Assembly (NCBI GenBank): GCA_013115125.1
Contig: JABANN010000085.1
Coordinates: 57,398 to 77,397 of the forward strand
Direction of reading: 5' to 3'
DNA length: 20,000 bases
Source of the DNA: Perkinsus olseni
Taxonomy: Eukaryota
Position 1 is the first letter of the stretch. Every line of letters starts with the position of its first letter. Positions 325 to 19,903 of this stretch are shown here, one piece after another. The translations under genes and the position numbers were made by a program. A model generated the notes under the pieces. It was not told the DNA's origin and did no database searches. It saw only the letters and a program-made list of their open reading frames with translations.

Positions 325-346
325 GACCAGACTCTGGTCACCAGAG
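325..346. other. 22-bp zig-zag footprint, exact; target GACCAGAG
   Basis: GACCAGA CTCTGGTC ACCAGAG. Confidence 0.85.
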
Positions 347-407
347 GTTTTACCGCCGCTAGCTCCAACTGGGACGAGTTCATTTCGTTTCGTAACTCGT
401 CCGTAGA

Positions 408-429
408 GCGATGATTCATCGCTGATGAA
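408..429. other. 22-bp zig-zag footprint, 1 mismatch; target GCGATGAA
   Basis: GCGATGA TTCATCGC tGATGAA. Confidence 0.7.
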
Positions 430-651
430 ACTACGTGATATGAACACGGCATTCGGATTCCTTCTCATGACACGCTACGTCAACTTCGAACGATATTTTT
501 TCGCGGAAGCAGACTTTGTTGCCTTCTTCAACCTATTCTACTTTCTCGTGATTAACGATTTATTCTCGTGAGTCATGAATAAGTCTACATGAACTCAGGC
601 TCTGCTCATGACAACGAGCAGATTCGACATCCTAGCCTACAGAATACACTC

Positions 652-699
652 GTACACACTCGTCACCACGGCTAATTGGCCGTGGTGACGAGTGTTTAC
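652..699. repeat. 48-bp near-perfect palindrome
   Basis: Perfect 17-bp arms (656-672 and 679-695) around TAATTG. Confidence 0.85.
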
Positions 700-850
700 A
701 TCCCGAACCACGGCTGTAACTGGCCGCTCTCAAGCCTCTCCTTGCGGGAAGGATGCTCTTCGAGGAGAATGATGCGAAGGCCAAGGTTCGTACCATCGAT
801 AAGAGGCCCCCCACTACGGGCAACTCGACTAACGCAAGAGACACGGTTCA

Positions 851-872
851 CTGCGTATTACGCAGTGCGTAA
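851..872. other. 22-bp zig-zag footprint, exact; target CTGCGTAA
   Basis: CTGCGTA TTACGCAG TGCGTAA. Confidence 0.85.
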
Positions 873-1759
873 CCTCGTTGGAGGGTTAGCGTAAACGGGC
901 TAAGAGACGCCAGGCTAGGCTTAATGGTAGAAGTCTTAAATTGTTATTTTGTGGTACCATCATAACAATAATTGTCTATTGACCCGTCTACCATAGCAGC
1001 ATCCACAATACAAGATGTTATCGCTAAGTTATGAGGTAATCATAGGCAGCGATAGGCTATATAGACGAGGAGGCGAAGGTGAATGAAGGAACGACTTCGT
1101 TTAAGAATCGGCTCGTCTTCAGGAGACAGATTTGATTTCCACTTTGATGGTAGATCAGGCATCCTGGCGAACGGCCAGGATGTTCGAAAGTGGTGTTAGG
1201 AAAAAGCCAGTCGAGGATATCGACACTCAGACTCTGGTGAGAGTAAGAAGATCTCCTCCGAGTTGTACATTAATCGTATTATCACTGGCAACGAACACGT
1301 GTTTAAGATCACCCGGCTTCAAAGATTTTTCCGGGCAGATACGCTTCACATACTTCAATACCGTCATTTTCAGACCGTGCATTTTCGATAAGCAAAACAG
1401 AAATTTTATCAGTTCTTCGCTATTAATTTAAGTATGAATCAAAATCGAACACCCGTAGACTCAGTACACTCACACTAATCATATATCTGTGCCACACGCG
1501 AAACGGCTGATCGATTGTAAATATCTGGGCGCGCGACGAAATTTCACTCATTTTTACCGTGCAGTTTTGTTAAGCAGTTACTCGTTTCTTCACGTTTATG
1601 GCTCGCAAAAACCTTTGACAACCGGAGAGAAAGCGCAGATAGTGAAGCTACTCTCCCAGGCTCTGTCTCAGTTACTGAGACATTACCGATAGAGACGCCA
1701 CGAAACGATCATTCGGACAGTACCAACTCGGACACTCAAACTGCCCGGCCATATGAGCT

Positions 1760-1788
1760 TGATTTTCGCGATCCGTTCGCGAAAATCA
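1760..1788. repeat. Inverted repeat with 12-bp arms and a 5-nt spacer
   Basis: TGATTTTCGCGA TCCGT TCGCGAAAATCA. Confidence 0.8.
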
Positions 1789-2462
1789 CGCAAGTTTTTG
1801 GGCCCTTAGCTCCCGAGTTCCCTTGCCGTCACGCGCCACAATAATCTTTTTTCAACGAACTTATGTTGGGTCGGTCTCGAAACTACCTCTATTTGCCCCT
1901 CACGTGTGGTGTCGCGCCAACTCCCATGAACGGACCAGTAACCTGTGTGAGGTTTGTCATCATTCGTTGAATGCATCAGCTTGTATGAGGCGCCCCTTCT
2001 ATCAAATAATGACCATAATCGTCGATGGCCTTACTGAGTTTGGCCAGCGCTTCGCTGAGCCTGGGACGCGCGTCGTCAGCCAGCCCAGACACGCAACTTG
2101 CAGGCCGCAAGCTACATCGGAGAGGGCTAGTGCGGCTACGTTTCCGCAGTATGGTGGGACATCCTGGGCTCAAGCGCCAGTCCGTCTGAAGGAAGTCGAG
2201 TGTATTCAATACTTAAGGGCTTGCAGTGCCACGCTCGCGCGTTTTGGGCCATCCAAAAAGTACGGTGATGAGCAGTAATTCTGATTGCCTAGTAATCAAT
2301 TTGTCACCTATGCCCTTACATGTGAGGCTGCATGTGCCCGGAGCTTTTTTAACCTATTCCTTACAATTCGAATATTGCTTCTCTTACGGTGTGTGTCTTC
2401 TTCTGGTTCGGTTGAGTTTCTCTCTCCTCAAGGAATATGCATTGAGTTACTGGGTGCAAAGC

Positions 2463-2672
2463 AACTGTCTCAGTTGGCACTGTACGAGTTGTAGTGGCGA
2501 GCGAAGTGTCGCTGTCCCAAGTGGTCCTGTCTGAATTGGTCCAGGTCGCCCAGCCGTTTTTGTCCGACCTGCCACTGACTCAGTTGGCAGTGTCCGAATC
2601 TGTGGTGTACGGGTTGATACCTTGTACGAGTTGACCACTGTCCGAATTGGCACTGCCTCAGTTGGGATACAC
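2463..2672. repeat. Degenerate ~15-bp tandem array (consensus ~GAGTTGGCACTGTMC)
   Basis: Units include CAGTTGGCACTGTAC, CAGTTGGCAGTGTCC and GAATTGGCACTGCCT; inverted units occur at ~1712-1742. Confidence 0.65.
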
Positions 2673-3150
2673 CCTTGCCCTTGTTGCATGTGGGGCTGGT
2701 TGTGGTTTCTGGTGACCAGAAATTCTGGAAGATACCTGCGAGTACTCACCACAGTACGAGCGTAGTCTGCAGAGACACTTCACTCTTCCGAACTCTGATC
2801 AGCTGACGACAATGAAGTTCGAAGGGAAAGATAAGATCGACGGGAATTGGCGATGATACAGCAGCCAGATGCCTCGGCGTGTGTTACGGGCTAACTGGCA
2901 AGGATATTATTTCTGAACGCTCAAGGGGCCGGCTTGATTCCTTTTATCGATTGCCACTAGCTGCTAATTGGAATACTGTCAGTACAGCGGGACGGGAATC
3001 CCATCGTTTGATGACAGATGACTCGAACCGGCAAGATGCGATTTCCGTCAATCCACTGCAGTTTGTGTTGAGTCATGATCCATCGGTACTAGACAGTTCA
3101 TTGATGCGGGTTTGGCGGCCTTCGTAGCGTGCATTCACTGGAATAGTAGT

Positions 3151-6100
3151 ATGGCTGCTGCAGAGAAGGACGACACTCGCCAGGCGGCATCCATTTATGA
3201 ACTTTGCATGAAGCTTGGCCATGAACTTGATGATGTGCGAGATCGCGCAGTGAGGGCGTTGATGACCAAGACCTCCACTGGTCTGACCAGCCCCATTACT
3301 GTTGCTCGTAAGGTCGAAGGATTCTTCTACCAGACCTGACGCTCATCTCTCAGGAGTCGTAGAGTTCCCACAGCTGGCTCTACACTGGTTGAACGATCGC
3401 CACAGGACAGCCCACACAGACCTTGTTAAGTCCTTCATCAAATTCTACACGTCAGTCGTGGCCACTTGTGTGGCTGAGAATGCCCATCTAAGAGAGAGGT
3501 AAGGACTTCACGCGTCGTTTGGCTGGGAACTGTGGCCCCGGCGTGCGACCCCACGTATCCATTACCCGGGAGGAGCGCCTCAATAGGTTCATCTCTAGCG
3601 GAGCGATAGATTTTTTCGAGGATTTCCGCGGCTTTGAAGCCCGGTGAGTATCGTCCTTCCGTGGTTGCCTCTGATCATTCATGGGAAGCAGATACGCTGA
3701 GGAGATTGACGCTGCCTTGTCGTGTCTTCTGAGCCAAACGGGTCCATCGTCCTCGGTCGTCCAGCGGCCACCAAAGACTCCCCGACCGCCTCCCGGCCAC
3801 GCTGCTGTGGAGGCCGAGGCCGCCAAGACTCGACCGAGTTGGATCGAACTGGTTGCCGTCTCTAGTGCCGGTCAGTTCTTCAAGGACTCCTAGACTCCCG
3901 GCCTAGTGAGCATCGCTGATGATCAGATGAGAGGCGTCTTTTTGAAGCGTCGTGTAGAATAAAGTATTCGAGTGTTGGGCGGAGCAAGCGTGTAGCTGCT
4001 CTCAACGAGGTGAACTCACTGGTCCCCGCGTACAGAAGAACTCGGGCTAGGTCCGATACCTGATGGTTTATGATTATCCTGCGGAGGTGTTCTTCAGCAA
4101 GCATGGTGTGCTCATTTGCGAGGCCCTGGTGGCAGCACTGGCGGACAACATCGAACAGCCAGAGGTGAGGTCTGCGGGAAATGGGTCGTCGAATCGGTAT
4201 TGAGGGTCAGGACGCGAGGACCGAGGACCCAACGTGCAAGCTAGTGTCTGAAGCGCTCCACGCGGTTCTCCTGGGGCTCGAGAAAAAACTGAAACTAAAC
4301 GAAAAGTACGGCGGGCCTCGAGCGATTCGAGAAATCTCCCATCCTTCAGGCTGTCCGTGGAGCCTTGTATCCCGACGATTCATCTCATACTAGTAGCAGT
4401 CGTCAGCGCCATAGTGCACAGCTCCTCGGCGGCCGTCATGAGCGCCCTGCAACGGTCAGCTAACACGGCTATCGAGATCCTGCAGCGTGGCGAGAAGGGA
4501 GCCAGAATGTAGGCCGATACTCTAGGGAAGCCTCTGCGGCTCGGAGTCGCCGGGCCCTATGGCGGCCAGGAGGAAGAGAGCTTTGTGTAGGCGATGCTTC
4601 TTCGACCTCGGCCTTGCTCGGGAGGAGATAATCAAGTACTTGGATCTCGTTGCCGACGCTCTGGCCCGATACTTCTGCCCGTCGGAGTACTATGAGGTAT
4701 GCCAGAGGCAGTCGGGGTGGTCGGAGTCATCATCGCTCAGGCATCAGCAGTGCTGAGCTTGGTGAGGGCATGGACGCCGACGAGGCTGGCTGTCTTCGAC
4801 TTGTGCTCGGAGTTGCTGGTCATGTCGAGAGATGTCTTTGTGCAGAGGAAGAGAAACGAGAAGCTTGTGGGGCATCTCAGAAGCTGGTCTCTGGTGAGTT
4901 TTCGAGGGGGGGCTCCTTCAGCTGCGTAGCCGTAGAGTCATCGCGGTCTCCCCCATCCAGTCTTCACTTTTCCAATAATTGCAGCAGCGGTCAGAATGTG
5001 AAGAGGGGCCTAGAGATTCCTGCCACCACATCGCGCCGCTCACTATCGATTATAAGTGTCTTCATCCTGCACTCGAAGCGGATAAAGAAATTATCAAGTT
5101 GCTATCATGCGCGGAACATCGGGTGGTGTGTGACAATACTTCATGTCAATCCTTGGGCTATGCTCGTATCCTTGCACGCTCGAAGTGTCTCTCGTTTCCA
5201 GGACCCTCAACTCTACCATCATCGGCCGGAATTGGTGGAAGAGTTGGTCGCCTCAGTGCTGCAGTCCGTCTCAATAGAAGCCTATCGGGACTTCCGCGCT
5301 CTCCACGCCTCCGAGGGGCAAGAACAACCTGAGGAGCTATCAGAGGCCGCCAAGGCTGCTCGCCAATTAAGCGCGATGGGCTTCGAAGACGAGGAGTACC
5401 ACTGGAGCGGCGACTCTTATGCAGCAGTAGAGTTGCGCTATGCAACGACCGACATCCCCGAGGCCCACCGCGTGGCTTATGAGAGGAAATTGGACGTCCT
5501 TCTGTCGTCCAGACCGCCACTTGAGGTCGCCGCCGCTTCTTCGAGGACAGCGGAGATGATCTTCGGCCAGTATCGCACGACGCTTCGTCATGCCTTCACC
5601 GTGGGTAGACCTAGGCTGCGTGACAAAGTGACTGAAGCCATGCAGTGTATCATCACCGCCATGGACTCGCGGAGGCAGCTGTCTTTGGTGCCGGAAGAGT
5701 TCCTCCTAGACTTGGTTACTCTGGCCTGTAACGGAGTAAAGCAGAAGTCCTTCAGACCGTCCTTGTGGTTGCCGTTCATTCTCCTCCTCCTGCAATCCGA
5801 CGGTCTGCGTGAGATTACTCTGCACTCGGTCAGGCTGCTGTGCACTATGGTGATTCATCTGGGTCCGAATGTCGTCAGCACCGATGTCCTGCAGCTCGGA
5901 ATCGTCCCCTATGTTATTCGCCCGATGGCTAACTGTGGGACGGCCTGCCACTTCATGGTCACCGGCTCACTGTGGCTCCTGTATGCTACGTCAATCGACA
6001 CTAAGGAGCTCAGGAACACTCTGATGCCGCTGACTCATGCAGGGAACACGGTCCTCACCCGTCGACTGGCTTGGCGGGCCCTTGCCGAGCACTTCTCGGA

Positions 6101-9100
6101 GGACCTCGAGGAGAGAGCTGTGGACTGTGCGTTGAGTGAGGAGTGCGAAGTGGAAGTTAGACTCGAGTGCTTGCGCATCATGGAGACCAACATGAGTCGT
6201 TCCATCGCCGCCAAAGTCGTCCAAAAGCTCCCTTCCCTCATGGGTGTTGAGCAGCTGCCGCAGCTTCCCGATGACGCAATGCGGGAAGCGGTCGTGAGCG
6301 TGATGGGAGCGATAGAGGACGAGGAATCGTTGAAGGCTCTGGCCCGGGAGCTCACCAAGATGAATCTTTGGAGTGCGGTGATCGACTCGGGAAGGTAGGC
6401 TATCTTGGTTCCAGCAAGGCTGGCTCGTAATTCCTTCCTGTCAGTCCATCTGGTGTTTGGAGCCTAGTCTCGCGATGCATGGACCTCGACTCAGAGCTGT
6501 TGCCCTACCTCAGTATGCATACCACCCTTTTCGATGCCTCCCGAGCCATGCCACTGTGTGGCCCTATGCTCCAAGTAAGACGACCGGCACGACGGCGCTT
6601 CCGATTTATGGCCGTTGGAATCTCCGGCTGTTGTTGATTCCGTTGGCTTTTCTGAGCTCTAGTACTTTCAACACTTTGTCACCACTTTCGTGTTACATTT
6701 CCCATCTCAATTCGTGGCAAGTTAGGGACTGCGTGACTTTCCTGCGGATCTGAACCTGAACTAAGAATACAATTACCCGGGTACTCAGCACTATTTTTGC
6801 CGTCTCTCCCCGTGTGTGTGAGGCATATACTCCCTGCGCGTTTGGGCTCGCGAGCCATCAGTACTGTTACCCCTGCTGGGCATTGATGTAGGTACTACGC
6901 AGCCTGCGAGCCCAGCTTGGCGCACGCCGTAGCGCTCAAGCCCTGAGGCCGGCAGTACTGTGGATGAGTCACCAAGGAGAGCGCATGGCTGGATGGGTCA
7001 GAGAGTGGTGGGTCGGGAGAGCAGTCTTAATCGGAGACACAACCCTCCATTGCTAATAGCAATGGAGGGTTGTGTCTCCGATTAAGAAGCAATTAGCAAT
7101 TTGCTATAGTATCAGCAGACTTGGCGGGAGTTTCTCCCGCGATCTTTCATCAGCCGGACCCCAACATTTGAATCAGGCCGAGGTCCCCGTGCCCTGCTCC
7201 TTCGCGCGTGTTGTTCGAGGGTGTTCGGAGATGGAAGCGTGACACTGCTCGTGCAGGGCAAGACAGACGATGTGTTTTAGGGTCACACCCTGTTTGGTGG
7301 ACAGGAGCTGCGGTACACCATCACAGCTCCCGTGGAAGGCCTCATTGGCTTTGGCATCGATAAGCTGTATTGGAGACAGCATAAACTTGTAAGTTACTAG
7401 GATCGACCTTAGGTGCTCATCATGGCTGGGCTGACAGTAGAGTACTGGATGGATCCTCAGTTTCCTCGGAACGTGAGTTAAGCTCGGTCTCGATCACCTA
7501 CCGGCTTCTCAGGTTCCAAACGGCAACAGGGGAGAAGATACATCACGTGGAGAAGCTCAACGCTGGTGGCTTCGTCGAGCCAGTGACCGAGGTCTGGCCC
7601 TGCGCGGTTTTTGCCGTTCATCCATAAAGTCAGTTGCTGCCATGCTTCCGGCCCGAGCACATCTCCACTGCCACCTGTGACGTCGCCATTGCTCTGCAAT
7701 CCCTGCTATCCAGCCCCGCGATGATGGTACCCTGGGGGGCTCTCTCGACGCCGGTGGTACGTCCTGTGGCCGCTTCAGGACCCCGCTGCAGCCAACGCTG
7801 TTCTCGGTCGCATAGCGAAGGCCTTGTCCGAGTCAATAACTGGTTTACAGATGGGCACTCCTCGGAGTGCCTCAACCCCCAGGGAGAGGTCCTGTGAGGC
7901 GCATCGCTTCGTTGCAACTCTGACACAGCTGCTTGGACGGGTCGCCACGGTGAGACGATCGCTTCTCTGCTCTGCGAGCCGCCCTTTGTGACGGCGATGC
8001 GTTTCATCATGATCTGGACGGCGTTAGCGCAGCAGCCCGGTCTGTCAGTTACACCCTGTCCTGAGTCTCGAGGCGGAAGCATCACCGTTCGTGAGAGCTT
8101 TCAAGATAGTGTGGTCCGCGTCCACGTCTTCGCGGAGAAGTCCAGGGGAGCTGGCCAGCGATGAGCTCACGGCCGTCCTTCTCGACTCACTCAGTACGCA
8201 ATCACTATACCATGTCGCTTGTGCCCACGATGAGCGTCCCACGCTGCATGGCTTCAACCCTTTTTCAGGCATCGTAAATTTTTCGTCTTTTTCGTAATTT
8301 TTGCAATGTTTTTCTAAGCATCCCGTGATCGATATTTCTTGCTTTGGCCAGTTACTCTAATAGACGACAATAAAACTGTCGCGGCCATTCCGGACCACTT
8401 AGCGAGAACCGGAGTGCTGTCGCTGGTGCTCTCCCTGGCCACTCGCCCTGAGATACCGGTCGCCCTGCTGGCGCGTTGCTGTGATGTCATCACACTGGCG
8501 AAGAGGCGAGCTCATTTCATCTGTTGAACGAAGCTGATGATCGGTCTCAGCTCCCTGATTAACCGCAGCGTGCTGGGGAAGGTCGTGAGTGCGGTCGTCG
8601 ATGCTCACGTGAATTCAACAGTCATCCTACGATCGGCAGCGAGCGAAGCCGCAACCGCTGCTATCACTAGGGCTACGGTGGTGTTCGAACTTGTCACAGG
8701 TCAGCATAGCGGTGGGCACTGACGTCGCTGTGGCCTGGGGACTCAAGTCCCTTTCCTGGTCTGGGCCCTGCCCATGCCCACTTTTCCAGATCTGGCACAG
8801 TGCCAACAGACAGCAGCCAAGGTGGGTCCTCGGCTGGTCGAGGACGGCTGGATAGAAATGCTCAAGCCAATACCGAGTGGCCGGCAACCAATCACACCAA
8901 CCCTGCAGGCCGCCATAGGGCGGATGGTTCTCGCCCTCTGTGAGTAAATAGTCTCCTCGTCCATCGTCAGCTGTAAGCAGGTCTGAGCCCGTGCCCGGCA
9001 CCCCGCAGGAACCTCATTGTTTCGGAGTCCGCCGTTGAGACCCTGTGGCGGCGAGCCGTGGAGAATGAGGATGCTGACGCTTTCATGGCAATGGCGGTGA

Positions 9101-9454: not shown

Positions 9455-10021
9455 TAACAAATCCTGATCTTAATCCTGAAAACGATGAACCGGAAAAAAT
9501 CGCTCATGAGGCCTGTGGACAGTGGATACACAAGCGCGCGCCTGGAAGGTCCCTGACGGTCGCGGCGCGACCCGTGAAGTGGCACGATGATATGACTGAC
9601 CCACACTAGAGATGTGACGTAATGGTCAGGGCTTATGTTTCGTAGGCGGGAGGTCGCGAGATCAATCTAGCGGCAACCATTTTTTCGGTTTGTCGGATGA
9701 CTCATGCAGCTTGAGGAGTTCGAGTACTACCCGCGAGCCGATAATGTCCAGGCAGACACCAAGTGCACTGGGGCGAGCCGCAGTCTTCACTACGGGAGAA
9801 AAAAATTAACTACAGTACGGTTCAACAAACGAATTATACGTGAGTTGTCGACAACAAGTCCTGTGACTTTCCTATGAGAATTTGCTATGGCACCTGGAAT
9901 TTTGATACTTTTTGCCACCTCGTCACTTCCTCAGACATTTTTTCCTTTGCCGGAACACCATACTGCGGTCACTCCGTTACAAGAGGGGCGCCGTCCACAA
10001 ATAATCAGTAGAACTATTCAC

Positions 10022-10043: not shown

Positions 10044-10427
10044 CGCGACTGACTCACTGTGCCAGACACAGTAATTGGTACTTATTCAGTACCCAAGTAC
10101 CTCAGTATTCAGTACCTCAGCGGAGTGTAGTTGAGTTTGAAAACCATAACTCGCTCAGTTCGGTCTCATGAGTGTGCGTGGAAGTCCTTATCCGGTACAG
10201 GGATCTCAATCGCAAAGGCACCTAGCAGTCCATATACTCTGTAACGAAATTTGATGTGGATTGACTGAAGCCATCAAACAAAAATTGTCCGACAGACAGT
10301 CTCCAGCGAAAGAGAATGAGCTCGAATCCCAGAACAGTGGCCCAAACCGCCGACAGCGCTCGGGCGAAAAATATCCAACTGTCAATAGGCTATCATACGA
10401 TATCTCACATGCCGCGATAGGGGCTGG

Positions 10428-11219
10428 TCAGACCTTAGTGAGTGGTAGGCGAACTCCTTCAAACGCCACGTAGATCGTCTTTTCAGTGGCGACGACCACT
10501 TCCTCGAAGTCTCCGGGCTTCTGATGTTTCCATGGGCAGACTTGCCTTACTTGGTTGAGAAATCCTTCCCAAGAGGGTCCCTCCCAAACGGGTTCTACGA
10601 CATGGCGGCGATATAGAAAGCCAGTCTCACGGCCAGCAAGCTTGTGGGGAAAGCGGGCAGTCCTAATCCTTTTACACTCGACTTGTAGACCAGCCGTTCC
10701 ATCACGATATATTTTGTAGATCATCCTCATGTGGGGGGACACAGGCTCCTCGTAAACGTATTCGCCCGGCGACAAATCGCCTCCCACTCGTAGAAAGCGG
10801 GCGTGCTCGCCACGTAGATCGACGGAGAACGCATCACCGGTCAGGTAGGTCAGAGTAGTCAGATCGGCAGGGTAGAAGCGGTCTGGAACGAAGAGTACGG
10901 TTTCAACAATAAAACCGTAGATGGACTGATGCCAGTCAGCACTCGTTATCCCGGAATTCTCGAAGTCGATGGTGTAGGTGAAGCCCTCATCTTTGCGTAG
11001 GGGGTAAGACCCAAAGCTGCGAACAGCAACCCCCGGTATGGCGTCTATAACATACAGGGGTTTAATGACTTCGACCGTCAACGTAACTTCTTTTTTCTCG
11101 TTCACATCGTAATACATCTTGAAGTAAGACCCCTTGTAAGCGAACCTGCCAACATCTTGGGCCGTGCTAATGACCAGGACTTGCGCCAACAGGAGCCAAG
11201 CAGAGACGGAGTTCATCAT
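10428..11219 (-). CDS. Intronless predicted secreted/surface protein (~263 aa) with two internal homologous halves; lineage-specific family, function unknown
   Basis: Open frame whose likely start is MMNSVSAWLLLAQVLVISTAQ (signal-peptide-like). The two halves resemble each other (GRFAY.../PGEYVY..., DLTTLTY/DFEEVVV). A clear paralog lies at 14077-14847. Confidence 0.75.
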   Translation of the reverse strand: MMNSVSAWLLLAQVLVISTAQDVGRFAYKGSYFKMYYDVNEKKEVTLTVEVIKPLYVIDAIPGVAVRSFGSYPLRKDEGFTYTIDFENSGITSADWHQSIYGFIVETVLFVPDRFYPADLTTLTYLTGDAFSVDLRGEHARFLRVGGDLSPGEYVYEEPVSPHMRMIYKIYRDGTAGLQVECKRIRTARFPHKLAGRETGFLYRRHVVEPVWEGPSWEGFLNQVRQVCPWKHQKPGDFEEVVVATEKTIYVAFEGVRLPLTKV

Positions 11220-12081
11220 TAGGGACGGGGATGTCGTGCCCCGGAGAAAACTGTAGGAGCAGAAATCTCTCATCGAGAAGGAGCCAAAGGTTTGGCCAGT
11301 ATTGAGATTTGACGATGCAGTGTCGATGACGAACAAAGATTCCCAAGACCATGAACGTCGAATGAACCCACTGAATGAAGCCACCCCAGTTGAATACATA
11401 GTGATCAAAGTGCACTGTAACTCAGTTCACTGGTTATTTGAGACGGGGCTCAAAGAAAGGCGAAGTCGGGCTCGAGGGGAGTTCGGAAAGAACTGATCCA
11501 TCTCCCTGTGGATTTAGAGTGAACGTAGGTTTAATACCATGACGGGGAACGCACGTGTTTGCTGGGACGAACGTACATAACATGAGCAAAGACGCACAAA
11601 GAGCAAGATGGTGTTGTGCCATTCGGGTGTATCGGGTGGCATAGGACGCGACACACAGGAAAGGGTGTGCTAAGCCATCATGGTCTAGCCTTGTTAAGCC
11701 ATGTATTTTATGGTGGAAGTTCCTAGTCTCGAGCACAGCGGAACGAAGCGCATCAGATAGGAACGCAGTAGCAGTGGAGGTAGTTGTCACTATAGTGCAG
11801 AAGCTATGAGGTTGACGTCACATCACCACGCGGCAGACCTGGAACTCGCGATGGCGACGGCTATGGCGAGGGATGATCCTTATGAAAGCTTCCACGACAA
11901 CTTCTATAGACAAGCAGCAGGTGCAATCAAGTCTCAAGGTCAATGGCCAACTACTAGGCCTTGCGTGGTACTCGTAGAGCTTTCTGCATTTCATACGCTA
12001 GGTGCACGAACGCGAGATTTCCACGGCTCGACCCGAGTTGAGCGTGTCAGCAATTTCAGGCGAGCGCATTAACCGTCAAGC

Positions 12082-12103
12082 TGTGGAACTTCCACAGTGG
12101 ATG
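12082..12103. other. 22-bp zig-zag footprint, 1 mismatch; target TGTGGAAG
   Basis: TGTGGAA CTTCCACA GTGGAtG. Confidence 0.75.
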
Positions 12104-13189
12104 CTAGGTGACGCTGTATGAGAGCATGCATGTGAGCTGCTCACATCCGCTGCTCACCTCACACCGTGGTAGTACCACAGGATGAAATCACACTCGATCA
12201 ATTGGGATGCATCCCCTGAGGCTCGGCTACGAAGCTGCGAGGCTACGGGTTGGTGAGCCCGATACGTGCCCGACGCTTCAAGTATCATACTTCCGCCACC
12301 GGATAGACGGGATAGGCTTGATCCGGCATGATAACGGACAGCGTCAGGAACGTCGTTTCGAGTCGTAACTTAAGATGCTTAGAATCGGGCGCCACGTGAC
12401 GCACTGTAATCCTCGCACATGCACAGGTGGTTGGTGGCGCTCTCGTTTCCATTTGATGGACCGCATAATATCGAGAAGTTCTGGACTAGAACAGGCGTCT
12501 CTGGTTTACCCATCAGTCCTCTTTGCTGTATGAGAAACAGGCTGGCGGTCTTTTTCCAGGCCCTTGAAATTACCATGATGCATTTGAGTGTCAATAGTGA
12601 CTGACCAAGTTTATATAATAATACCGCTGTGCCTAATAGACTCTCATCCTGAACAGGTAATGAGAACCTGCCAGCCGTTACTCAGTAAGATACCGCAGAA
12701 ATTGCCAGACTCCGTGTCCAATTAGGGCCGAGTCAACGAGTTGTCACTCCTGTGCGCGTGCTGGACCTCCGCGAGAGAAATTTGATGGATAAACTCAACA
12801 TGCCGCTTGGCACGAAATAACTGAATCAATAGAAACTGCTCTGCATGAGTCACCACAACTCAAGCAATTAACACTGCGCCGACAGAGACCGCGGGCCACA
12901 AAACTTCATGGGGAACATGAGTTATCCATGGCTCATCAATTTCACTCCCGTTGATCCTTCTCACGGCGGATCGCTACCAAGAATCTAAAGGGGAGAATCC
13001 TCGGAGACATCCAGACCTCGACGGGTCAGATTGCTAAGGAGGCATCCTAGTGCCTCCAGCCTGGCAGGTTTGTGTGAGAAGTTCAACGCGGATAACACTG
13101 CAGTGTTCAACACGGATGAGTCATGACACATAAGCCGCTCATGATGAGTCCACTGAGCAGTGCTGCCCGTCAGACGGACTGCGTCTTGA

Positions 13190-13211
13190 GGTATAGGCTA
13201 TACCGTATAGC
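13190..13211. other. 22-bp zig-zag footprint, exact; target GGTATAGC
   Basis: GGTATAG GCTATACC GTATAGC. Confidence 0.85.
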
Positions 13212-13449
13212 TTCAGCAGGCAATAGACCCGGTCCAATAGACCGCGCAACTTTCCTGAGGAGCAGCGATTCCTCCTTCTAACTTGGACATCCTAAGTAGC
13301 GACAGTCCTCGCGACCCGGTGATGCTGTCATCAGTTGTAGGAATGCGCGCAGCGCGCAGCGCCTTCTTCGGGTCAATGGCCTGGAAAGATAGCCTAGCTA
13401 TCACTTTTCGCTCACTGCTTGTTTATTACTGCTCGTAATGGTACGGTGA

Positions 13450-13471
13450 AGGTACACTGTACCTGGTACAG
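13450..13471. other. 22-bp zig-zag footprint, exact; target AGGTACAG
   Basis: AGGTACA CTGTACCT GGTACAG. Confidence 0.85.
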
Positions 13472-13526
13472 AGCACCTTTATTCTGGGTCTAGCTGAGCT
13501 AGTTAAGGCTGGTGCAATGTCAAGTG

Positions 13527-13548
13527 GTACAGCGGCTGTACTACAGCC
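13527..13548. other. 22-bp zig-zag footprint, exact; target GTACAGCC
   Basis: GTACAGC GGCTGTAC TACAGCC. Confidence 0.85.
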
Positions 13549-13966
13549 TATGCCGCTCGACACTGTACGAGTAGCGAACAGGACAGCATGTGCTGTACAG
13601 GTGTGTCGTCATCCAGCATAAATACTGGTACTCAACTTTCGGCTTTTGTCGAGTCGTGCACTTGTAATAAGTATGAGTCTATTCGATACAGTGAAGTTTC
13701 GTCTCGAGCCAATTGGAACAGTTTCACGTATTTCGTAGTTTTGAACGTATTGGATGACGTGTTACTTTCCGACTGTATTCGCACAGTGCCATTCAGTGCA
13801 GTTTCGAGGAGTATAACTCACAGTGTACGAAGCTTTACGCCAGTGTAGCCGTTACTCTGGTGTACACTGTACAGTATCATATCACCGCTCGTCTCTAGCA
13901 GAGACAGATCTGACCCATAAGATCGATCACCAAGCTGGCAGCGGACAGTTGGGGCGAGCGCTGGAA

Positions 13967-13988
13967 AGTTGTACTACAACTGTTGTAG
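13967..13988. other. 22-bp zig-zag footprint, exact; target AGTTGTAG
   Basis: AGTTGTA CTACAACT GTTGTAG. Confidence 0.85.
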
Positions 13989-14076
13989 TAACAACGTTGC
14001 AAGAACCCAGGGAAAATGGGCTGTTTGTGGTCATCGGCGGTGACAGGCAGCTTAACACGGTGAATTGGCATAATGC

Positions 14077-14847
14077 TCAAGCCCGGTCGTTGGTGAGTGC
14101 CCTGCGTGTCCCCTCTATCTTCGTGTAGATGGTCTTATTATTAGCGAAGACGAATTATTATTATCCAGCGAAGATTTCCTCTCGACTACCAGAAGTGAGC
14201 TTGCAACGGAAACGAGGAGTACTATGCCTTCCGCATTTGACTTTTATCCGGAAAATCTCATCAGCGCGGACCTTGAAGACCACTTTTAAGCTTGGGGAAG
14301 TTGGCCCGTTGTACACGAATGTACCAGGTATCAAACTGTCTACCTTCTTTTTGAAAATGATCATCTTGTTCTGGAAGTGGGTGGAGAGATGGTCGCCATC
14401 AAGGTAGGTGAGATACATAAGATCACCATATTGAATCCCAGCAGGGGGCAACGAACCATCGCGCTTGACCGCACCGGCATTTCCCAAGTAGTGACCAATA
14501 GCCTCGTATGAATTAGGGAAGCTCGAAGGGGGGCCTCTCTCTTAAAACGAATACCGATAGATGGAACCGTCTTGCTTTTTCAAGGGGAGTCCCTTTAGGG
14601 GACTGGCTGAATGCTGAAGGCTGTCGGGCGTTTTGGGAGGACACCAAGCCTAGGGGGCCGAGAATGAGAAAGCAGCTTTATGGTCCACGTCAACGTACGT
14701 TGCTGCTTTCTCATTCTCGTTGACAACGTTGAAGGCCATACGAGAGCCTTCTGTCTCGTGCACAAACTTCCCAACGTATTGGCCTGTGACGAGCACAGCT
14801 CGAATGGTTTGTACCCACGTCGAGAGGAAATTCACTGAGGTATTCAT
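14077..14847 (-). pseudogene. Disrupted paralog of the 10428-11219 secreted protein
   Basis: Matches to the intact gene: PLKKQDGSIYRYSF~PLRKDEGFTYTIDF, GDLMYLTYLDGDHLS~ADLTTLTYLTGDAFS, LIPGTFVYNGPTSP~LSPGEYVYEEPVSP, and KTIYTKIEGTRRALT~KTIYVAFEGVRLPLT. It carries in-frame stops, a 14-bp insertion, a 33-bp insertion and an apparent deletion near 14155. Confidence 0.8.
14582..14603. other. 22-bp zig-zag footprint, 1 mismatch; target AAGGGGAC; inside the secreted-protein pseudogene
   Basis: AAGGGGA GTCCCtTT AGGGGAC. Confidence 0.75.
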
Positions 14848-14931
14848 TGAGCAACAGAAGGTATTCCTGAAGGAGAGTTGACGATGACGAAGCAACCACA
14901 CAATGCCGCCGAGCATGTAGACGTCCACGTC

Positions 14932-15089
14932 TGTTGTGTGTCTGGTGGCCAGAGTCCCTGACCACTCAGCACACAAGACATCTGTCCCCATATCTTAGCT
15001 CAGCGTTGCCCATTGATTAATGACGATGTGCTCTTAATTACAGTCTCTTAAGAAGTCTTAAGTACTTGGGTTTGCCATGACTGGTAACA
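14932..15089 (+). repeat. 5' LTR of the TRIM (158 bp)
   Basis: TG...CA ends; differs from 15589-15746 at 5 positions. Confidence 0.93.
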
Positions 15090-15166: not shown

Positions 15167-15576
15167 CATGGTGAATTCGTCAATCTATGTCCGTCGACTA
15201 TGTTGGACTATTTGAGAGCTCCAGTCCCATTCGTTTACTAGGCCAATTGATAGACGTGGAGCTTCCCAAAAGCCTCGCCTTTTGCCTGACACTGTGTACG
15301 AGAAGATTTGCTTTACTGCCTTGGTAACGGCTATGTGATGTCGGTTCAGCCCAGCGGCCGCCGGGGCTCTGTCTGGTACACCAACGTCTCACATGCTGAC
15401 AGTTAACAAGTGCTTCTTCTGGTTGTGGATATGCTTTCGTCTGGATTTTTGACGGTGGAGCCGTTGGACTATAGACAGCCCAAGACATCACTCTTGTGTA
15501 TAAGTATGCTGAAGTCCGTAGGTGGTTAATAATGAAATTTGAGAATGATAGTTGTTTTCATTTGAGTTTTTGGTCT

Positions 15577-15588
15577 GGGGAAGGGAGA
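15577..15588 (+). promoter_or_regulatory. Polypurine tract
   Basis: GGGGAAGGGAGA directly abutting the 3' LTR. Confidence 0.85.
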
Positions 15589-15746
15589 TGTTGTGTGTCT
15601 GGTGGCCAGTGTCCCTGACCACTCAGCACACAAGACATCTGTCCCCATATCTTAGCTTAGCGTTGCCCATTGGTTAATGACGATGTACTCTTAATTACAG
15701 TCTCTTGAGAAGTCTTAAGTACTTGGGTTTGCCATGACTGGTAACA
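15589..15746 (+). repeat. 3' LTR of the TRIM (158 bp)
   Basis: Direct repeat of 14932-15089, 153/158 identical. Confidence 0.93.
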
Positions 15747-15883
15747 ACGTCAAAAACGACGTGATGTGGACGAAATCGGCATGGACAAAAATAGGAGTAC
15801 ACCGAGGGCGAATGCGGCGTGTGTACAGCCTGAATTTGTGAGTTCATCGAAAACAATCGTTGAGTCGTTGACCTTCGAGTCTC

Positions 15884-16513
15884 TGTAGTTGTGCAAGTTC
15901 ACAACTATGGGCCATACTCAGCCTGAGTAGTCTATATAGTCTAACATAGTCTATGGCTCCTGAGCCTAGCCTGACGCTAGTTGATGACTTTATGAGTGTT
16001 ATCATTGGCAGAATCTCAGGATTCCACGAAACCATTGACTTGAGTTTCCCGATGGTTAACATGGTGGAGGACCCGTCCTCCGAATCCTCGGTGAACCCTG
16101 TCGGCTTGCAGATTGCTCATGCTTTTGGTGTAGAGAACGTTTACCTTTTACGATATGTTACTGATGAAGAATTTGCTGAGAAGTGCGAAGATATGCTCAC
16201 TGATAAGAAGACGACTGTTGCTGATATACTGGCTTGGTGCGATTATATGGAGAGTATTGAAGATAATCGTCCCCAATTGTATCGTTCTACCCACGTTTTC
16301 ATTAAGGATGTGCGCGATAAGATGGACGCCCAACAAAGACCTGCAGGTGACGGTACTACTTATACTACTACAGTTGCTGTTGCTTCTACTATTTTGGGTT
16401 CGACTTCGTTAACTGCGACAACTGCGACAACTGCGACTGCGAAGTTATGCTTCTGGCTACCTCGGCTTTTTCCACTGCCTGTGCTCAGCAGACCTAAGCA
16501 GCCTCCGTCGTAG
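15884..16513 (+). mobile_element. Truncated LTR retrotransposon 5' end: putative LTR ending at 16061, PBS 16062-16075 and a gag-like ORF 16061-16513
   Basis: ...ACTTGAGTTTCCCGATGGTTAACA|TGGTGGAGGACCCG parallels the TRIM junction ...ACTTGGGTTTGCCATGACTGGTAACA|TGGTGGAGAACCCG. A 150-aa ORF (MVEDPSSE...) starts at the junction. The left boundary (TG at 15884) is a guess and no second LTR was found. Confidence 0.6.
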
Positions 16514-16665
16514 GGAGAGAAAACTTGTCATTAGCTCTTTGGCTAGACCTGGGACCGAGACCGCTACGGTATATTCCACACAGGGGCATATTTCACATGA
16601 CTTTAACTAATGCTAAGTACTCACTAAATAGACCTTAAGCTAATGGAATCTTGACGAAAGTGGAC

Positions 16666-17490
16666 ACTTGATTGCGCATTAGGCACTGATGAACGTTCCA
16701 CAGTGATTCTATGCCTCGATCTTGGCATTCAACTTGAGTGACTCAAGGCCAAGAGCTCCGCGTGAGTGAACTAGGTGGCGGATAAAATATTAGGGATTGC
16801 ATACACTCGGTCGCCGCTCTTCCCGGCAATATCGAAAGCATTCTTCTCAGTTCCCGCACAATTGCTTTATTTGGCGCCATGGGACAGACCGGTAGCCACG
16901 CCTTGTGCATAGGCCAGCGTGGCCATGTCAATGATGAGCTCTGGATTGAGGCGTTTAGCTGCTAAATTAGCAGCATACGTGACCCCATCCGCGACGGTCA
17001 GCCGCCCTTCACAGTCCGTGTTGTTGATCCTCAGTGGAGATTCTCCACTGTAAGGCCGGAATACATCTCAATAACATCACCACGACGATACGAATCAGGC
17101 TCGATATCGCTCTCAGCAAGGCAACCGATGAAATACAGGCGGCACTCAAGAACGGTTGGTCCATGGCACGTTCAACGGTTGAGAACATAGCACTGTTACT
17201 TTAACAGTTTATGGACTGAAAACTTAGTACTGAAATCATCCTCTCCGAGTTTAACTGGACCAGTTTCCACCGACCTATCCGAGAAAGCCGGAACATCCGA
17301 CTTCTCCTCCGTGCCGAACCGGGGGTGGGTGCTCTCCCATCGCAACCTTCACGGGTCCTGAATTAGGACTATGCTGATGAGCTTTTGTCGTTAGACAGTT
17401 GAATGCCCCTAAGTTGCCGGCGCCCTGGACGGCAACATTAGACATGAAACTCACCATGAAGTCCAGAACGTCGCATACTTAGGCCAGAAT
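16666..17490 (-). pseudogene. M17 leucyl aminopeptidase (NPEPL1-type) pseudogene fragment
   Basis: Manual translation gives CLAESDIEPDSYRRGDVIEMYSGLTVE/INNTDCEGRLTVADGVTYA...IIDMATLAYAQGVATGLSHGA*SNCA...AGKSGDRV...NAQSS. This contains the M17 NTDAEGRL motif variant (16999-17022) and the DMATL motif, with stops and frameshifts. Both ends are approximate. Confidence 0.85.
16726..16747. other. 22-bp zig-zag footprint, 1 mismatch; target CACTCAAG
   Basis: CAtTCAA CTTGAGTG ACTCAAG. Confidence 0.75.
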
Positions 17491-17547
17491 CTTCGTTCCC
17501 GGGAAGAGACAAAAAGCCAGACTGCTCCTAGGAACAATTTTCCGGGA

Positions 17548-17569
17548 TTGCGGAGTCCGCAATGCGGAC
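17548..17569. other. 22-bp zig-zag footprint, exact; target TTGCGGAC
   Basis: TTGCGGA GTCCGCAA TGCGGAC. Confidence 0.85.
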
Positions 17570-18223
17570 CGCATGGAGCCGGAGGTTTCAAAGAACACTG
17601 CCCGTTAGCATGCCGCCGAGGTAATTGCGATGCTTTGTGCCGGCTTCGCCGTCAAGCAGAGACTTGGCGATCCAACAAGAGCATGAGATTCGACAGCGCT
17701 ATTGTTTGTCTTTGTCTTGTGCTCTTGAACAACCCCGAGACCAGCTTCGGCGCGGTAAATCACTTTCCTGCGACGGTACGATGCAACTGGGGGCCTAGCC
17801 ACTGGTGGATGAGGGGTTCGTCTACACTTTGCTGTCGAGCCTCTCAGAAGGAGGCTGGTCACCGTGTAGTACACGGAAGCCAAAGAGGTATTGGCCATTG
17901 GGAGTATTGAATTGGGTGATAATGTTTGTGCGCTCCGGCATAGGCTCTGCTATTTGTGCGTCCTCTCGTCCCTGCACTCGCGTGCACTGTTGGGAACTTT
18001 GATAGCACACCACCGTTCAAGCGCCGGATTGAAGCACGACTCTGTAGCACGACGGCTTTACGGGCTTAACACTGCGAAATATTTGCTGCAAACGTCTCTT
18101 GGCCGTGGCGACATCCTCTGGGTCAAATATTATTCAATAATATACTAAAAATTATAACCAATGATGACTATCGGCAAATCCCCTGCCCCTGCAGTGTTCA
18201 CACTTTACCACCATTCAACCCCA

Positions 18224-19304
18224 ATGGCCATGAACATTCCGGCTATCTTCGGCTTCATCGGACTTCTAGTCGGCTGCCGTGCTGATAAACTGGTGAGGTT
18301 GGCTATATCCCAGGATAGAGCTCTTCCGGGCCTTCTGACCTCTGAACGATTGTTCGCTCGCCTGAACGTCGACAACGAAGACGTCAAGGTGATAGTAGAT
18401 ATAATACCTACTACCTCCCGAAACCCAAACCCGAACCCGAACCCGAACGCGATAAGCTCATCTTCAAGTGCTATGAGTGCAACCCGGCCCCGTGTAAGGA
18501 GGGCCCGTATGGACGGTACGTGCTTTCTACGGGAAACTTATGTTTGTCTTCGAGCACAACGGAACGTTTGCCTTCGGCAACTTAACCGCGACCGGTATCG
18601 AGTTTGCTCTGACAGAGTCCTGTAATTGCCGTCCTTTAGCCAGCTTAGGCCTGTCCCCGCCTCTCACAAAGCTCGCGCCTTTCCCCCCTCTCGTCTATTA
18701 ACTACTTGCTCGGCCGAGGTCTGAGCGGCTCATTGAAAGTAGTGCCTTTTCTCTTCATCTCAAGGCTGCAGAGAACCCTACTGGTGAGCTCATACTCGGT
18801 GGTGAAGACAAGAGCAAGTACAAAGGCAGTCTGAAGTTTGTGAAAGTTGTTCACAAGGAGGATCAGTCGATTATGATTTCGGGCTATTACGTTGGGGACA
18901 TCAGCCATGACCCGATCACTTTGTCGGTGACGTCTCATTTCAACACGGTCGATAGTTTCCTTCAGTTGCCTATTGATCATAAGAAGGAAATTATCAGGCT
19001 ACTTACGACACAGGGAACGAAGCCTCTCGCCATCGCTGAGCAGTACGGCTTTCTGAGAATATCCTGTGACGACAGCAAGTACTTGCCGTCGTTGACGTTT
19101 CTTCTGAAAGGCTCGGAGCTCGAGACGGTGCCACTGAAGATACAGCCTGCCAGCTACACTATTCGGCTGTCAACAAAGATGTGCATCTTGCGCATGGAGT
19201 TCCGTGACAATGGGACATGGAGCTTGGGTCTGCCCGCACTCATCGGGTTCTACCATTTATACGATTGGGACAGGTCTCGCATTGGTATTGCCGAGGTGAA
19301 ATGA
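18224..19304 (+). pseudogene. Intronless secreted pepsin-like aspartic protease (A1) pseudogene
   Basis: Signal peptide MAMNIPAIFGFIGLLVGCRA and A1 landmarks VKVIVD, FSLHL...GELILGGEDKSKY, LPSLTF and WSLGLPALIGFYHLYDWDRSRIGIA. The first DTG is lost at an insertion and the second reads NTV. There are frameshifts at ~18400-18530 and a premature TAA at 18699-18701. Confidence 0.85.
18417..18447. repeat. Short (CCCGAA)n-type tract
   Basis: CCCGAAA CCCAAA CCCGAA CCCGAA CCCGAA. Confidence 0.8.
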
Positions 19305-19524
19305 TAACAACGCATACATTGTTTGTACACCCGCAATGGGTGACACGTCATCAGCTCAATCGTAGAGTCGCCAAATTTCTTGAACTGTCATATTACTGTC
19401 AATAACGTTAACAACGCTTGCATTTCGGTCGTTACGGCGGATCACATCATCTCTATCATTTCACTCTTCGTCGAAGCCTCACAGTTGTATTCTCTCTGAT
19501 ATGTCTTGTTTGGTAGTAGTGAAT

Positions 19525-19546
19525 ACCACAACTTGTGGTCCACAAG
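19525..19546. other. 22-bp zig-zag footprint, exact; target ACCACAAG
   Basis: ACCACAA CTTGTGGT CCACAAG. Confidence 0.85.
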
Positions 19547-19597
19547 TAAAGTTCTAGAGTGTCGATTTTTGATATCATGATTTTACTGTGCAGTTTC

Positions 19598-19903
19598 GAC
19601 CAAGTCACCGCTCTTCTTGGCAATATAGAAGGCCTTCTACTCAGTATCCGCACAATCCATGACAATTGCGCCATGGGGAAGGCCGGCAGCCACGCCTTGA
19701 GTAGAAGTTCGGCTCCTCGTGAGCCTCGCGTCCCGTTCTTGTACGACGAACGTCTTACAGCTGGTGCCATCGAGACCTGTGTCTTCTGTTGTAACATCCA
19801 ACAAATCAACAGTATCTGCACAAATTGTGCGGCACAATTGCTTTAAATGGCGCCATGAGACAGGCAGGTAGCCACGCCTTGAGCATAGGTCAGCGTGGCC
19901 TCA
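19598..19903 (-). pseudogene. Two further short NPEPL1-type M17 fragments (~19598-19705 and ~19810-19903)
   Basis: They read ATLTYAQGVATCLSHGAI*SNCA and QGVAAGLPHGAIVMDCADTE*KAFYIAKKSGDLV, and are similar at the nucleotide level to 16810-16925. Confidence 0.75.
19817..19838. other. 22-bp zig-zag footprint, 1 mismatch; target CGCACAAT; empty site visible in paralogs
   Basis: tGCACAA ATTGTGCG GCACAAT; the homologous positions at 16855-16862 and 19649-19656 carry a single CGCACAAT. Confidence 0.85.

Follow-up and report, generated by a model that had tools for sequence, protein, structure and literature searches.

Overlapping inverted repeats of fixed geometry in a Perkinsus olseni sequence: probable healed excision sites of a hairpin-forming, hAT-like transposon

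Introduction

What process writes into genomic DNA a motif whose letters differ from site to site and whose geometry is fixed? The question is raised by a 20-kb stretch (the window, 20,000 nucleotides in all) from the shellfish parasite Perkinsus olseni; one open reading frame in the stretch is 99% identical to a protein that carries this species name in its source. In the window a 22-base structure recurs that consists of X[1-7], the reverse complement of X[1-8] and X[2-8]; the 8-mer X is unlike from one site to the next and the 7+8+7 arrangement is constant. Excision footprints have mostly been examined in small numbers, at reporter genes, and vary in form. Perkinsozoa are the sister group of dinoflagellates, and to our knowledge their DNA repair is almost unstudied. 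Our literature search found no description of this signature, which we call the zig-zag. Here, we report that the zig-zag pattern is real and argue that it probably records the departures of a cut-and-paste transposon, so that one fully determined product would mark past events across ordinary genomic DNA.

Results

Each site was scored by the minimum number of changes needed to meet the 14 constraints of the motif. Sites with 0, 1, 2, 3 and 4 mismatches numbered 8, 7, 8, 12 and 31, against means of 0, 0.025, 0.125, 1.8 and 18.2 in 40 shuffles, and the 23 copies with at most two mismatches correspond to roughly 1 per kb. The chance expectation for exact copies is about 7e-5, in keeping with the value below 1e-4 estimated in the original prediction. 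All eight exact and all seven one-mismatch copies of that prediction were recovered in the same classes, and its four two-mismatch copies (2090, 13165, 13223 and 17027) were joined by four more (9551, 10050, 12471 and 13344).

The pattern is sharply tuned in size. Exact matches for k from 4 to 13 numbered 4, 2, 0, 2, 8, 0, 0, 0, 0 and 0, which is the peak at k = 8 that had been predicted. In a grid of TSD lengths 5-12 and offsets 0-3 with 20 shuffles, cell (8,1) alone was clearly enriched (8 matches versus 0.0); cell (7,1) had 2 versus 0.0, and the remaining cells had 0 or were close to shuffle means. There were 19 palindromes with a 1-nt spacer and arms of 7 or more, versus 0.93 in dinucleotide shuffles; spacers of 0 and of 2 to 12 gave only 0 to 2 each. 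Direct 6-mers at offset 14 were found 20 times, with 3.9 expected.

The sites are as follows.

325..346, exact scar, X = GACCAGAG; within a zero-difference contig piece (302-1400) of run X3
851..872, exact scar, X = CTGCGTAA; within zero-difference contig pieces of runs X1 and X3
13190..13211, exact scar, X = GGTATAGC; motif scan and contig comparison
13450..13471, exact scar, X = AGGTACAG; motif scan and contig comparison
13527..13548, exact scar, X = GTACAGCC; motif scan and contig comparison
13967..13988, exact scar, X = AGTTGTAG; motif scan and contig comparison
17548..17569, exact scar, X = TTGCGGAC; fourth arm extends to 17574; contig comparison
19525..19546, exact scar, X = ACCACAAG; about 220 bp downstream of an aspartyl protease gene; contig comparison
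408..429, one-mismatch scar, X = GCGATGAA; change in third segment
10022..10043, one-mismatch scar, X = TTGGGGAT; change in middle segment
12082..12103, one-mismatch scar, X = TGTGGAAG; change in third segment
14582..14603, one-mismatch scar, X = AAGGGGAC; change in middle segment
15145..15166, one-mismatch scar, X = GTCAAAGT; change in third segment
16726..16747, one-mismatch scar, X = CACTCAAG; change in first segment
19817..19838, one-mismatch scar, TGCACAA ATTGTGCG GCACAAT; scarred member (copy C) of a three-copy paralogous repeat
16855..16862, empty site in paralogous copy A with one CGCACAAT; its right flank, TGCTTTA...GGCGCCATG, is shared with the scarred copy
19649..19656, empty site in paralogous copy B with one CGCACAAT; the CAGTATC before it matches the scarred copy exactly
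2090..2111, two-mismatch scar; motif scan
9551..9572, GC-rich two-mismatch scar; over 9472-9595 a related contig has 14 gaps
10050..10071, two-mismatch scar; motif scan
12471..12492, two-mismatch scar; motif scan
13165..13186, two-mismatch scar; motif scan
13223..13244, two-mismatch scar; motif scan and inner-six-base search
13344..13365, doubtful two-mismatch candidate; within GCGCGC low complexity
17027..17048, two-mismatch scar; motif scan
16954..16972, exact 7-mer zig-zag of the same geometry (TTTAGC TGCTAAA TTAGCA); k scan and grid
7025..7107, complex scar at target ATTGCTAT; palindrome, then AGCAAT, TAGCAAT and TTGCTAT

Complementarity between the flank CCGCAT and the scar at 17548 produces the fourth arm there, which accounts for the k = 7 match at 17556.

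The bases at the two palindrome centres were read at sites found by the inner six bases alone with at most one mismatch, of which there were 17 versus 0.07 in shuffles. The left centre was the complement of base 8 of X in 16 of the 17 (p=3e-9) and the right centre that of base 1 in 14 (p=1e-6). Retention of the original bases at both centres, the alternative product, was seen in 0/17. P-type inserts of 2-7 nt yielded two candidates where 1.2 are expected by chance, compared with eight full zig-zags, which bears out the original prediction of one dominant footprint.

The target 8-mers carry a preference of their own. A occupies position 7 in 16/23 scars (p=3.5e-6), whereas T at position 2 (8/23, p=0.2) is not enriched alone; pooled, A7 and T2 reach 24/46 (p=4e-5), and A at -1 with T at +9 in the outer flanks reach 20/46 (p=0.003). 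The difference between A7 and T2, 16 versus 8 (Fisher p=0.038), possibly reflects sampling. Such an asymmetry is unexpected for a symmetric transposase.

In a single case, the three-copy paralogous repeat, a scar can be compared with its empty site. Copies A and B hold one CGCACAAT, which is not palindromic, where copy C holds the one-mismatch zig-zag, and flanks are shared: the 69 nt downstream of the copy C scar are 90% identical to copy A, and the CAGTATC upstream is identical to copy B in 7/7 positions, a short homology.

The scars are not an artefact of assembly or sequencing. Zero-difference contig pieces of two runs, from two independent studies, span them, those of run X3 covering 8/8 exact scars and those of run X1 covering seven fully; the comparison is with contigs rather than raw reads, and the assembly possibly derives from one DNA run.

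The complex scar at 7025-7107 begins with a perfect palindrome (7025-7087; 31-nt arms, 1-nt centre), and its target ATTGCTAT has both T2 and A7. It is read as a standard zig-zag enlarged by 37 bases, the left hairpin having been opened 31 nt from its tip. The contigs of both runs stop at 7054 and resume at 7058, within the 31-nt palindrome. The duplicated AGCAAT/TAGCAAT at 7088-7100 resembles templated synthesis.

Scars are unevenly distributed. Nine with at most two mismatches cluster between 13165 and 14603, and the motif scan found none from 2112 to 9550. This 7.4-kb stretch is rich in open reading frames and in GC and is taken to be gene-dense; scars place overlapping inverted repeats close to promoters and, through their 14 extra bp, shift the reading frame, which may be why they are absent from it. 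Among the seven one-mismatch copies the deviant segment was the first in two, the middle in two and the third in three. After background subtraction the classes with 0, 1, 2 and 3 mismatches are flat (8/7/8/about 10), which suggests that scar-forming activity has been long and steady.

The hAT transposases combine a DDE core with a hAT dimerisation domain and often a BED finger. Among the 19 of 51 open reading frames of at least 90 aa in the window that were scanned, no transposase domain was found, the sole Pfam match being an aspartyl protease. A search for elements that end in terminal inverted repeats and are flanked by 8-bp direct repeats likewise gave none in the 20-kb window (0 found, 0.1 expected from shuffles), a small sample for such elements, and no hAT element or MITE was seen in it. 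The window thus has at least 23 scars yet no resident element.

Discussion

Taken on sequence alone, the zig-zags are probably sites from which a cut-and-paste DNA transposon departed and which then healed, with hAT as the likeliest superfamily. On insertion such an element would duplicate 8 bp of its target, and on excision it would nick 1 nt inside each duplicated copy, the flanks being sealed as hairpins; with complementary bases in lower case, the left hairpin strand would read X1-7 x8 x7-1 and the right one x8-2 X1 X2-8. Host nucleases would then cut both hairpins 3' of the tip, and the 3' tails could anneal over 8 complementary bases, x8..x1 being the tail of the left flank and X1..X8, on the other strand, that of the right flank. 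Flap trimming or gap filling followed by nick sealing would leave X1-7, revcomp(X1-8), X2-8, a net gain of 14 bp, and the scar would pass to descendants and be eroded by point mutation. The 7+8+7 structure had been proposed as a product of hairpin repair, and our independent derivation agrees with it exactly. In-register annealing gives the same product from any opening point, so one footprint should dominate if annealing drives the joining; blunt end joining near the hairpin tip would be the contrasting case. The data show the geometry and how specific it is, the empty site, and the scars' presence in independent data; that a transposon was at work, which superfamily it belonged to, on which side the hairpins were opened and how the ends were repaired are what we infer. 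The mechanistic core of the earlier interpretation agrees with four tests, those of the 8-bp/1-nt geometry, the complementary centres, A7 and the empty site. The choice of hAT over other superfamilies that form flank hairpins is not supported: the window showed no hAT element, MITE or transposase, T2 is not enriched, and no occupied allele was seen.

The same hairpin repair might have served another superfamily with 8-bp duplications and flank hairpins, either a Mutator-like element or a relative with a C/DxxH motif such as Dada, and we regard this as unlikely. The MULE Muta1 is described as forming flank hairpins and duplications of 8 or 9 bp, but also as excising precisely in more than 90% of events (PMC5499845), and of the 8-10 bp range of Mutator-like duplications only length 8 fits, lengths 9 and 10 giving no zig-zag match. 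Eight Dada entries are listed for P. marinus, and Dada is placed near hAT, MuDR, P and Kolobok (PMC3706591); the two exact 7-mer zig-zags would also suit its duplications of 6-7 bp. Five of the P. marinus Dada families, however, target tRNA genes according to the same source, and no tRNA gene lies in the 20-kb window. For hAT, by contrast, both the A7 preference (PMC10368747) and palindromes centred on the border base's complement (PMC5873905) are documented. An origin with no transposon at all seems to us equally improbable: a host nuclease, possibly a domesticated transposase, might make hairpin-capped breaks staggered by 8 bp, or a polymerase might switch template or snap back. Kat1, a domesticated hAT transposase, is reported to make hairpin-capped breaks for its host (PMC4763223), and a process without a transposon would agree with at least 23 scars beside no visible element or transposase, with the hint of an asymmetric process in A7/T2 and with the templated look of 7088-7100. 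Template switching, however, requires pre-existing complementarity and yields variable lengths, whereas arbitrary 8-mers here always give 7+8+7, and turn-around synthesis would keep the original centre base, not its complement. Replication template-switch mutation was rejected on the fixed form on unrelated 8-mers and the non-palindromic empty-site 8-mer. A duplicated 8-mer at both break ends is, moreover, just what a prior insertion supplies.

Two further explanations dispense with excision altogether. Selection for structured motifs, such as cruciform or hairpin signals, would fit the clustering in non-coding DNA near genes between 13165 and 14603; it is very unlikely given a different 8-mer at each site, mismatches spread evenly over the three segments with zero compensating changes, and no matching Rfam family. 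Palindromes can also be generated by library or assembly errors, and the contigs do break at the 31-nt palindrome, but an artefact has virtually no chance of explaining zero-difference contigs from two studies, a graded series of decayed copies with 1-3 mismatches and a paralog in the unscarred state.

If the zig-zags are excision scars, their single determined form means that a pattern scan can tally insertions and excisions, use decay to date them and map target preferences. They would also give a readout of how the host opens and joins hairpins, and in annotation they form a type of indel that can be recognised when haplotypes or paralogs are compared. A broader proposal, possible but doubtful, is that the zig-zag is the default repair of hairpin-capped breaks in Perkinsus, at steady state, the agent being either a highly mobile hAT-type family that nearly always leaves or a hAT-like nuclease kept by the host. 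Opening would then take place 3' of the hairpin tip, annealing would join the ends, and classical end joining would be weak or lacking altogether; +14 bp per event would accrue in non-coding DNA at about 1% of the per-base substitution rate, and scars would make up a noticeable part of intergenic sequence. The genome would be an archive of very many transposition and repair events, legible without reference to the element.

Hairpin-sealed flanks have been described for hAT, Transib and RAG as well as for the MULE Muta1 (PMC5499845; PMC4763223). Footprints of Ac/Ds, studied in plants, S. cerevisiae and Candida albicans, share with the zig-zags palindromic P-nucleotide insertions, a centre that is the complement of the border base and an 8-bp duplication, and they are described with arms of up to 20 nt in yeast and with microhomology at most joints (PMC5873905). 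They differ in being heterogeneous, with 28 types in 128 Candida events and P runs of at most 3 nt in that account (PMC5873905). In Perkinsus, one full-length product dominates, with both hairpins apparently unfolded and annealed over 8 bases, and it is part of the genome itself, occurring about once per kb, rather than the product of a reporter assay.

For Hermes, also a hAT element and native to Musca domestica, the nick is said, with reference to Zhou et al. in 2004, to lie 1 nt into the flank. Hermes resembles the putative Perkinsus agent in its 8-bp duplication, for which the target pattern nTnnnnAn is given (PMC10368747), and in its hairpin-capped flanks (PMC4763223). The differences are that A7 alone is clearly enriched in the Perkinsus scars and that the window shows no Hermes-like element or transposase. 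The coding joints of RAG-mediated V(D)J recombination, and Transib, offer a likeness in sealed hairpin flanks that are opened off-centre to give palindromic additions. In RAG and Transib the nick falls on the border itself instead of 1 nt away, and the Transib duplication is 5 bp; a footprint of that type was rejected, cell (5,0) having 0 matches and cell (5,1) having 2 versus 0.5.

Polymerase-theta or microhomology end joining, for which microhomologies of 6-20 bp and templated insertions have been described (PMC6635534), is similar in its annealed 3' tails and in the templated extra copies at 7025-7107. It differs in that the microhomology in Perkinsus would not be found by chance but made by two unfolded hairpins of a duplicated target. 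The hairpins themselves would thus create the microhomology, and the outcome would be an insertion of fixed form instead of a deletion.

Motif counts and specificity of the shape

The zig-zag scar is a 22-mer in which the first seven bases of an 8-bp target (X) are followed by the reverse complement of the entire target and then by its last seven bases. A direct motif scan of the window recovered all eight exact scars of the original prediction, each at its predicted start, and the computed chance expectation of ~7e-5 agrees with the earlier figure of <1e-4. When each site was scored by how few changes would satisfy all 14 constraints, there were 8, 7, 8, 12 and 31 sites with 0, 1, 2, 3 and 4 mismatches, compared to means of 0, 0.025, 0.125, 1.8 and 18.2 in 40 shuffles. 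Every predicted one- and two-mismatch copy was found again by this scoring, which added two-mismatch sites at 9551, 10050, 12471 and 13344, the last a doubtful site in low-complexity DNA. Two independent views agree with the motif scan: palindromes with a 1-nt spacer and arms of at least 7 numbered 19 versus 0.93 in shuffles (0–2 for each other spacer), and direct 6-mers at offset 14 numbered 20 versus 3.9.

The structure X[1..k-o]+rc(X)+X[1+o..k] was scanned for in a grid of duplication lengths 5–12 and offsets 0–3 (the offset being the nick distance into the flank) and compared to shuffles. The anticipated peak at a target length of eight was borne out within the window, where length 8 with offset 1 was the sole clearly enriched cell (8 matches versus 0.0). 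Length 7 with offset 1 gave 2 matches versus 0.0, and all other cells were at zero or about the shuffle mean. The two shorter zig-zags from the grid scan are:

16954, 7-mer zig-zag
17556, 7-mer zig-zag, arising because the flank of the scar at 17548 is complementary to that scar

In a relaxed search constraining the inner six bases alone and leaving the four outer positions free, 17 sites were found versus 0.07 in shuffles. At 16 of these 17 sites the centre of the left palindrome complemented X8, and at 14 that of the right palindrome complemented X1; none of them showed the sister product, in which both centres keep the original bases. Short P-nucleotide footprints with inserts of 2–7 nt were at chance level in the window.

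Variant scars and an empty site

One scar is of a more complex form:

7025-7107, perfect palindrome (31-nt arms, 1-nt centre), then AGCAAT TAGCAAT TTGCTAT

With X = ATTGCTAT, this would read as a canonical zig-zag enlarged by 37 bases, made up of 24 nt of left-flank sequence in reverse complement and two incomplete copies of x7-1 (x denoting complement bases). Such an arrangement is compatible with opening of the left hairpin at 31 nt from the tip and some templated synthesis. The contigs of both DNA runs, X1 and X3, end at the palindrome centre, as expected for a palindrome of such size, so that the exact form depends on the window's own assembly. About ten further palindromes with 1-nt spacers are not zig-zags and may be half-scars. 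Two more inverted repeats, at 652-699 and 14659-14719, are not zig-zags either; one has 24-nt arms that are 92% complementary with no spacer, and the other has perfect 18-nt arms and a 25-nt spacer containing the palindrome CAACGTACGTTG.

A short repeat occurs in three copies, aligned by paralog comparison:

16855-16862, copy A, single CGCACAAT
19649-19656, copy B, single CGCACAAT
19817-19838, copy C, scarred, TGCACAA ATTGTGCG GCACAAT

Downstream, copies A and C share 90% identity across 69 nt, and the CAGTATC directly upstream is the same in copies B and C. In copy C the centres are A and G, complementary to the terminal T and C of the single 8-mer. An unscarred counterpart with a single-copy target was seen in paralogs A and B, in the one scar-spanning paralog comparison of the whole window.

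Presence in other contigs, decay and rate

Logan contigs, as opposed to raw reads, were compared from runs X1 and X3, which belong to two studies and one of which may be the assembly's own source. Their pieces cover 302/327-1400, 2645-7054, 7058-11172, 11547-14983, 16240-17028 and 17000-19955 with at most one difference from the window. All eight exact scars lie inside X3 pieces and seven of the eight fully inside X1 pieces. The listed X3 pieces contain 14 of the 15 copies that have no more than one mismatch, the exception being 15145. Indel differences between runs and window were considered for the best-supported 12, with 110 more beyond these, and the parts left without cover in the diverged run X14 (12007-12673) were left out of the evidence. 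A related contig aligned to 9472-9595 with 14 gaps.

Of the seven one-mismatch copies, two deviate in the first segment, two in the middle one and three in the third, an even spread as predicted by later point mutation of an inherited scar. The mismatch series of 8, 7, 8 and, after background, about 10 for 0 to 3 mismatches is flat, which would be the prediction of constant formation and decay. Under such a constant-rate model, the per-base formation would be about 22 x 8 / 12,561 = 0.014 of the substitution rate, a figure that applies outside the scar-free stretch.

Distribution and genomic context

None of the 23 copies with at most two mismatches fell within 2112-9550, with a probability of 2e-5 under uniformity. 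This scar-free stretch has 55-57% G+C and long ORFs on both strands, one of 588 aa, and is probably mostly coding, although the sole confirmed gene of the window is an aspartyl protease located elsewhere. The absence of scars may be explained by the loss of 14-bp insertions from coding DNA. Nine copies are found in 13165-14603. The words GTACAG/CTGTAC are locally in excess in 13440-13880, with window-wide counts about expectation, and part of this excess stems from the triplication at two scars with overlapping target sequences (AGGTACAG, GTACAGCC).

The window is nuclear DNA from Perkinsus olseni or a strain very near to it, with one gene mapped:

18224-18388 and 18759-19295, + strand, two exons of an aspartyl protease gene (two-exon protein mapping; span to 19304)

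The ORF at 18702-19304 has a eukaryotic aspartyl protease domain (Pfam) and 99% identity to a protein named Perkinsus olseni by its source; for its Perkinsus olseni paralogs the identity is 81% and about 47%. Alignment of this protein against metagenome contigs gave 159 pattern matches, of which 0 were confirmed. A contig from run X7, RNA by guess, is colinear across the predicted protease intron, which also harbours tandem CCCGAA x5.8 (18417-18452). This guessed RNA run also has a contig over 10297-11172 at a depth of 353, overlapping a 332-aa ORF (10428-11426, − strand) that had no Pfam match and may be a highly expressed lineage-specific gene.

Depth was raised in the bins 1-667, 1335-2668, 11340-12006, 15342-16675 and 19344-20000 to about 8-30x that of single-copy contigs (about 47 in X1, about 91 in X3), so these bins belong to multi-copy families. 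They show many joints and loose ends, reflecting differing arrangements in other copies, and AACTGCGAC is repeated x3 in tandem at 16411-16437 within an ORF of a multi-copy family. The 37 bp at 11763-11799 are flanked on both sides by loose ends in most of four runs (behind 11799 in 4/4, before 11763 in X3 and X14), indicating a short high-copy unit in differing contexts; it matched nothing in Rfam, and searching metagenome contigs with an exact 26-mer of the unit gave nothing.

A possible excision and repair route

We infer a route that would start from an element between two copies of X. Each flank would be nicked 1 nt inside its X copy, on the strand bearing the element's 5' end, and the free 3'-OH would attack the opposite strand at the element border, leaving flank hairpins with the strands X1-7 x8 x7-1 (left) and x8-2 X1 X2-8 (right). 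If both hairpins were opened 3' of the tip, a top-strand 3' tail ending x8..x1 and, from the other flank, a bottom-strand 3' tail ending X1..X8 would result. These tails could anneal across 8 bases, and trimming of flaps or filling of gaps would yield the top strand X1-7 x8..x1 X2-8, matching the 22-mer observed. Had the hairpins been opened on the 5' side, the product would be X1-8 x7-2 X1-8, a form absent from the window. The 22-mer product is independent of the distance between tip and hairpin cut, which would account for one dominant footprint wherever annealing drives joining.

Relation to known systems

That hAT excision footprints are explained by a hairpin model is already known; what appears to be new is that one full-length annealed product occurs in a perkinsozoan at >1 copy per kb of non-coding DNA. 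No published account of the motif was found, either for Perkinsus or as a signature across a genome, subscription journals being mostly outside the search. The introners of Amoebophrya (PMC7789003) were considered and set aside as a different phenomenon. Many parasitic protists are described as having lost classical end joining, in an article whose main text leaves Perkinsus unmentioned (PMC6635534).

The 8-bp geometry and the hairpin-type centres of the predicted hAT excision origin stand. Rfam and tRNA scans of the window gave no matches. No hAT domain was detected in the 19 scanned of 51 window ORFs of at least 90 aa (Pfam), the 20-kb window contained no element combining terminal inverted repeats with 8-bp duplications, and no element-occupied allele was seen; the superfamily is thus assigned from the footprint itself, as putatively hAT. 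Flank hairpins are reportedly left by hAT, Transib, RAG and the MULE Muta1 alike (PMC4763223, PMC5499845). Possible agents therefore include a Mutator-like element or another hairpin-former that duplicates 8 bp, as well as a hAT-like nuclease kept by the host.

The target sequence bears on this choice. In 23 reconstructed targets with at most two mismatches, position 7 was A in 16 (p=3.5e-6) and position 2 was T in 8 (p=0.2). Pooling both positions gave 24/46 (p=4e-5); directly outside the target, A before and T after pooled to 20/46 (p=0.003). The hAT pattern would thereby be matched at one half-site, and only weakly at the other. An imbalance between A7 and its mirror T2 (16 versus 8, Fisher p=0.038) runs against expectation for a symmetric transposase and may stem from sampling. 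A putative hAT agent remains our preferred reading. The nick offset of Hermes is said to be 1 nt (Zhou et al. in 2004). Excision of Ac/Ds in plants, budding yeast and Candida leaves deletions and palindromic insertions, the latter centred on the complement of the base adjoining the transposon, with palindromic arms of up to 20 nt in S. cerevisiae and microhomology at most joints (PMC5873905). Hermes is described as making an 8-bp duplication with the target pattern nTnnnnAn (PMC10368747).
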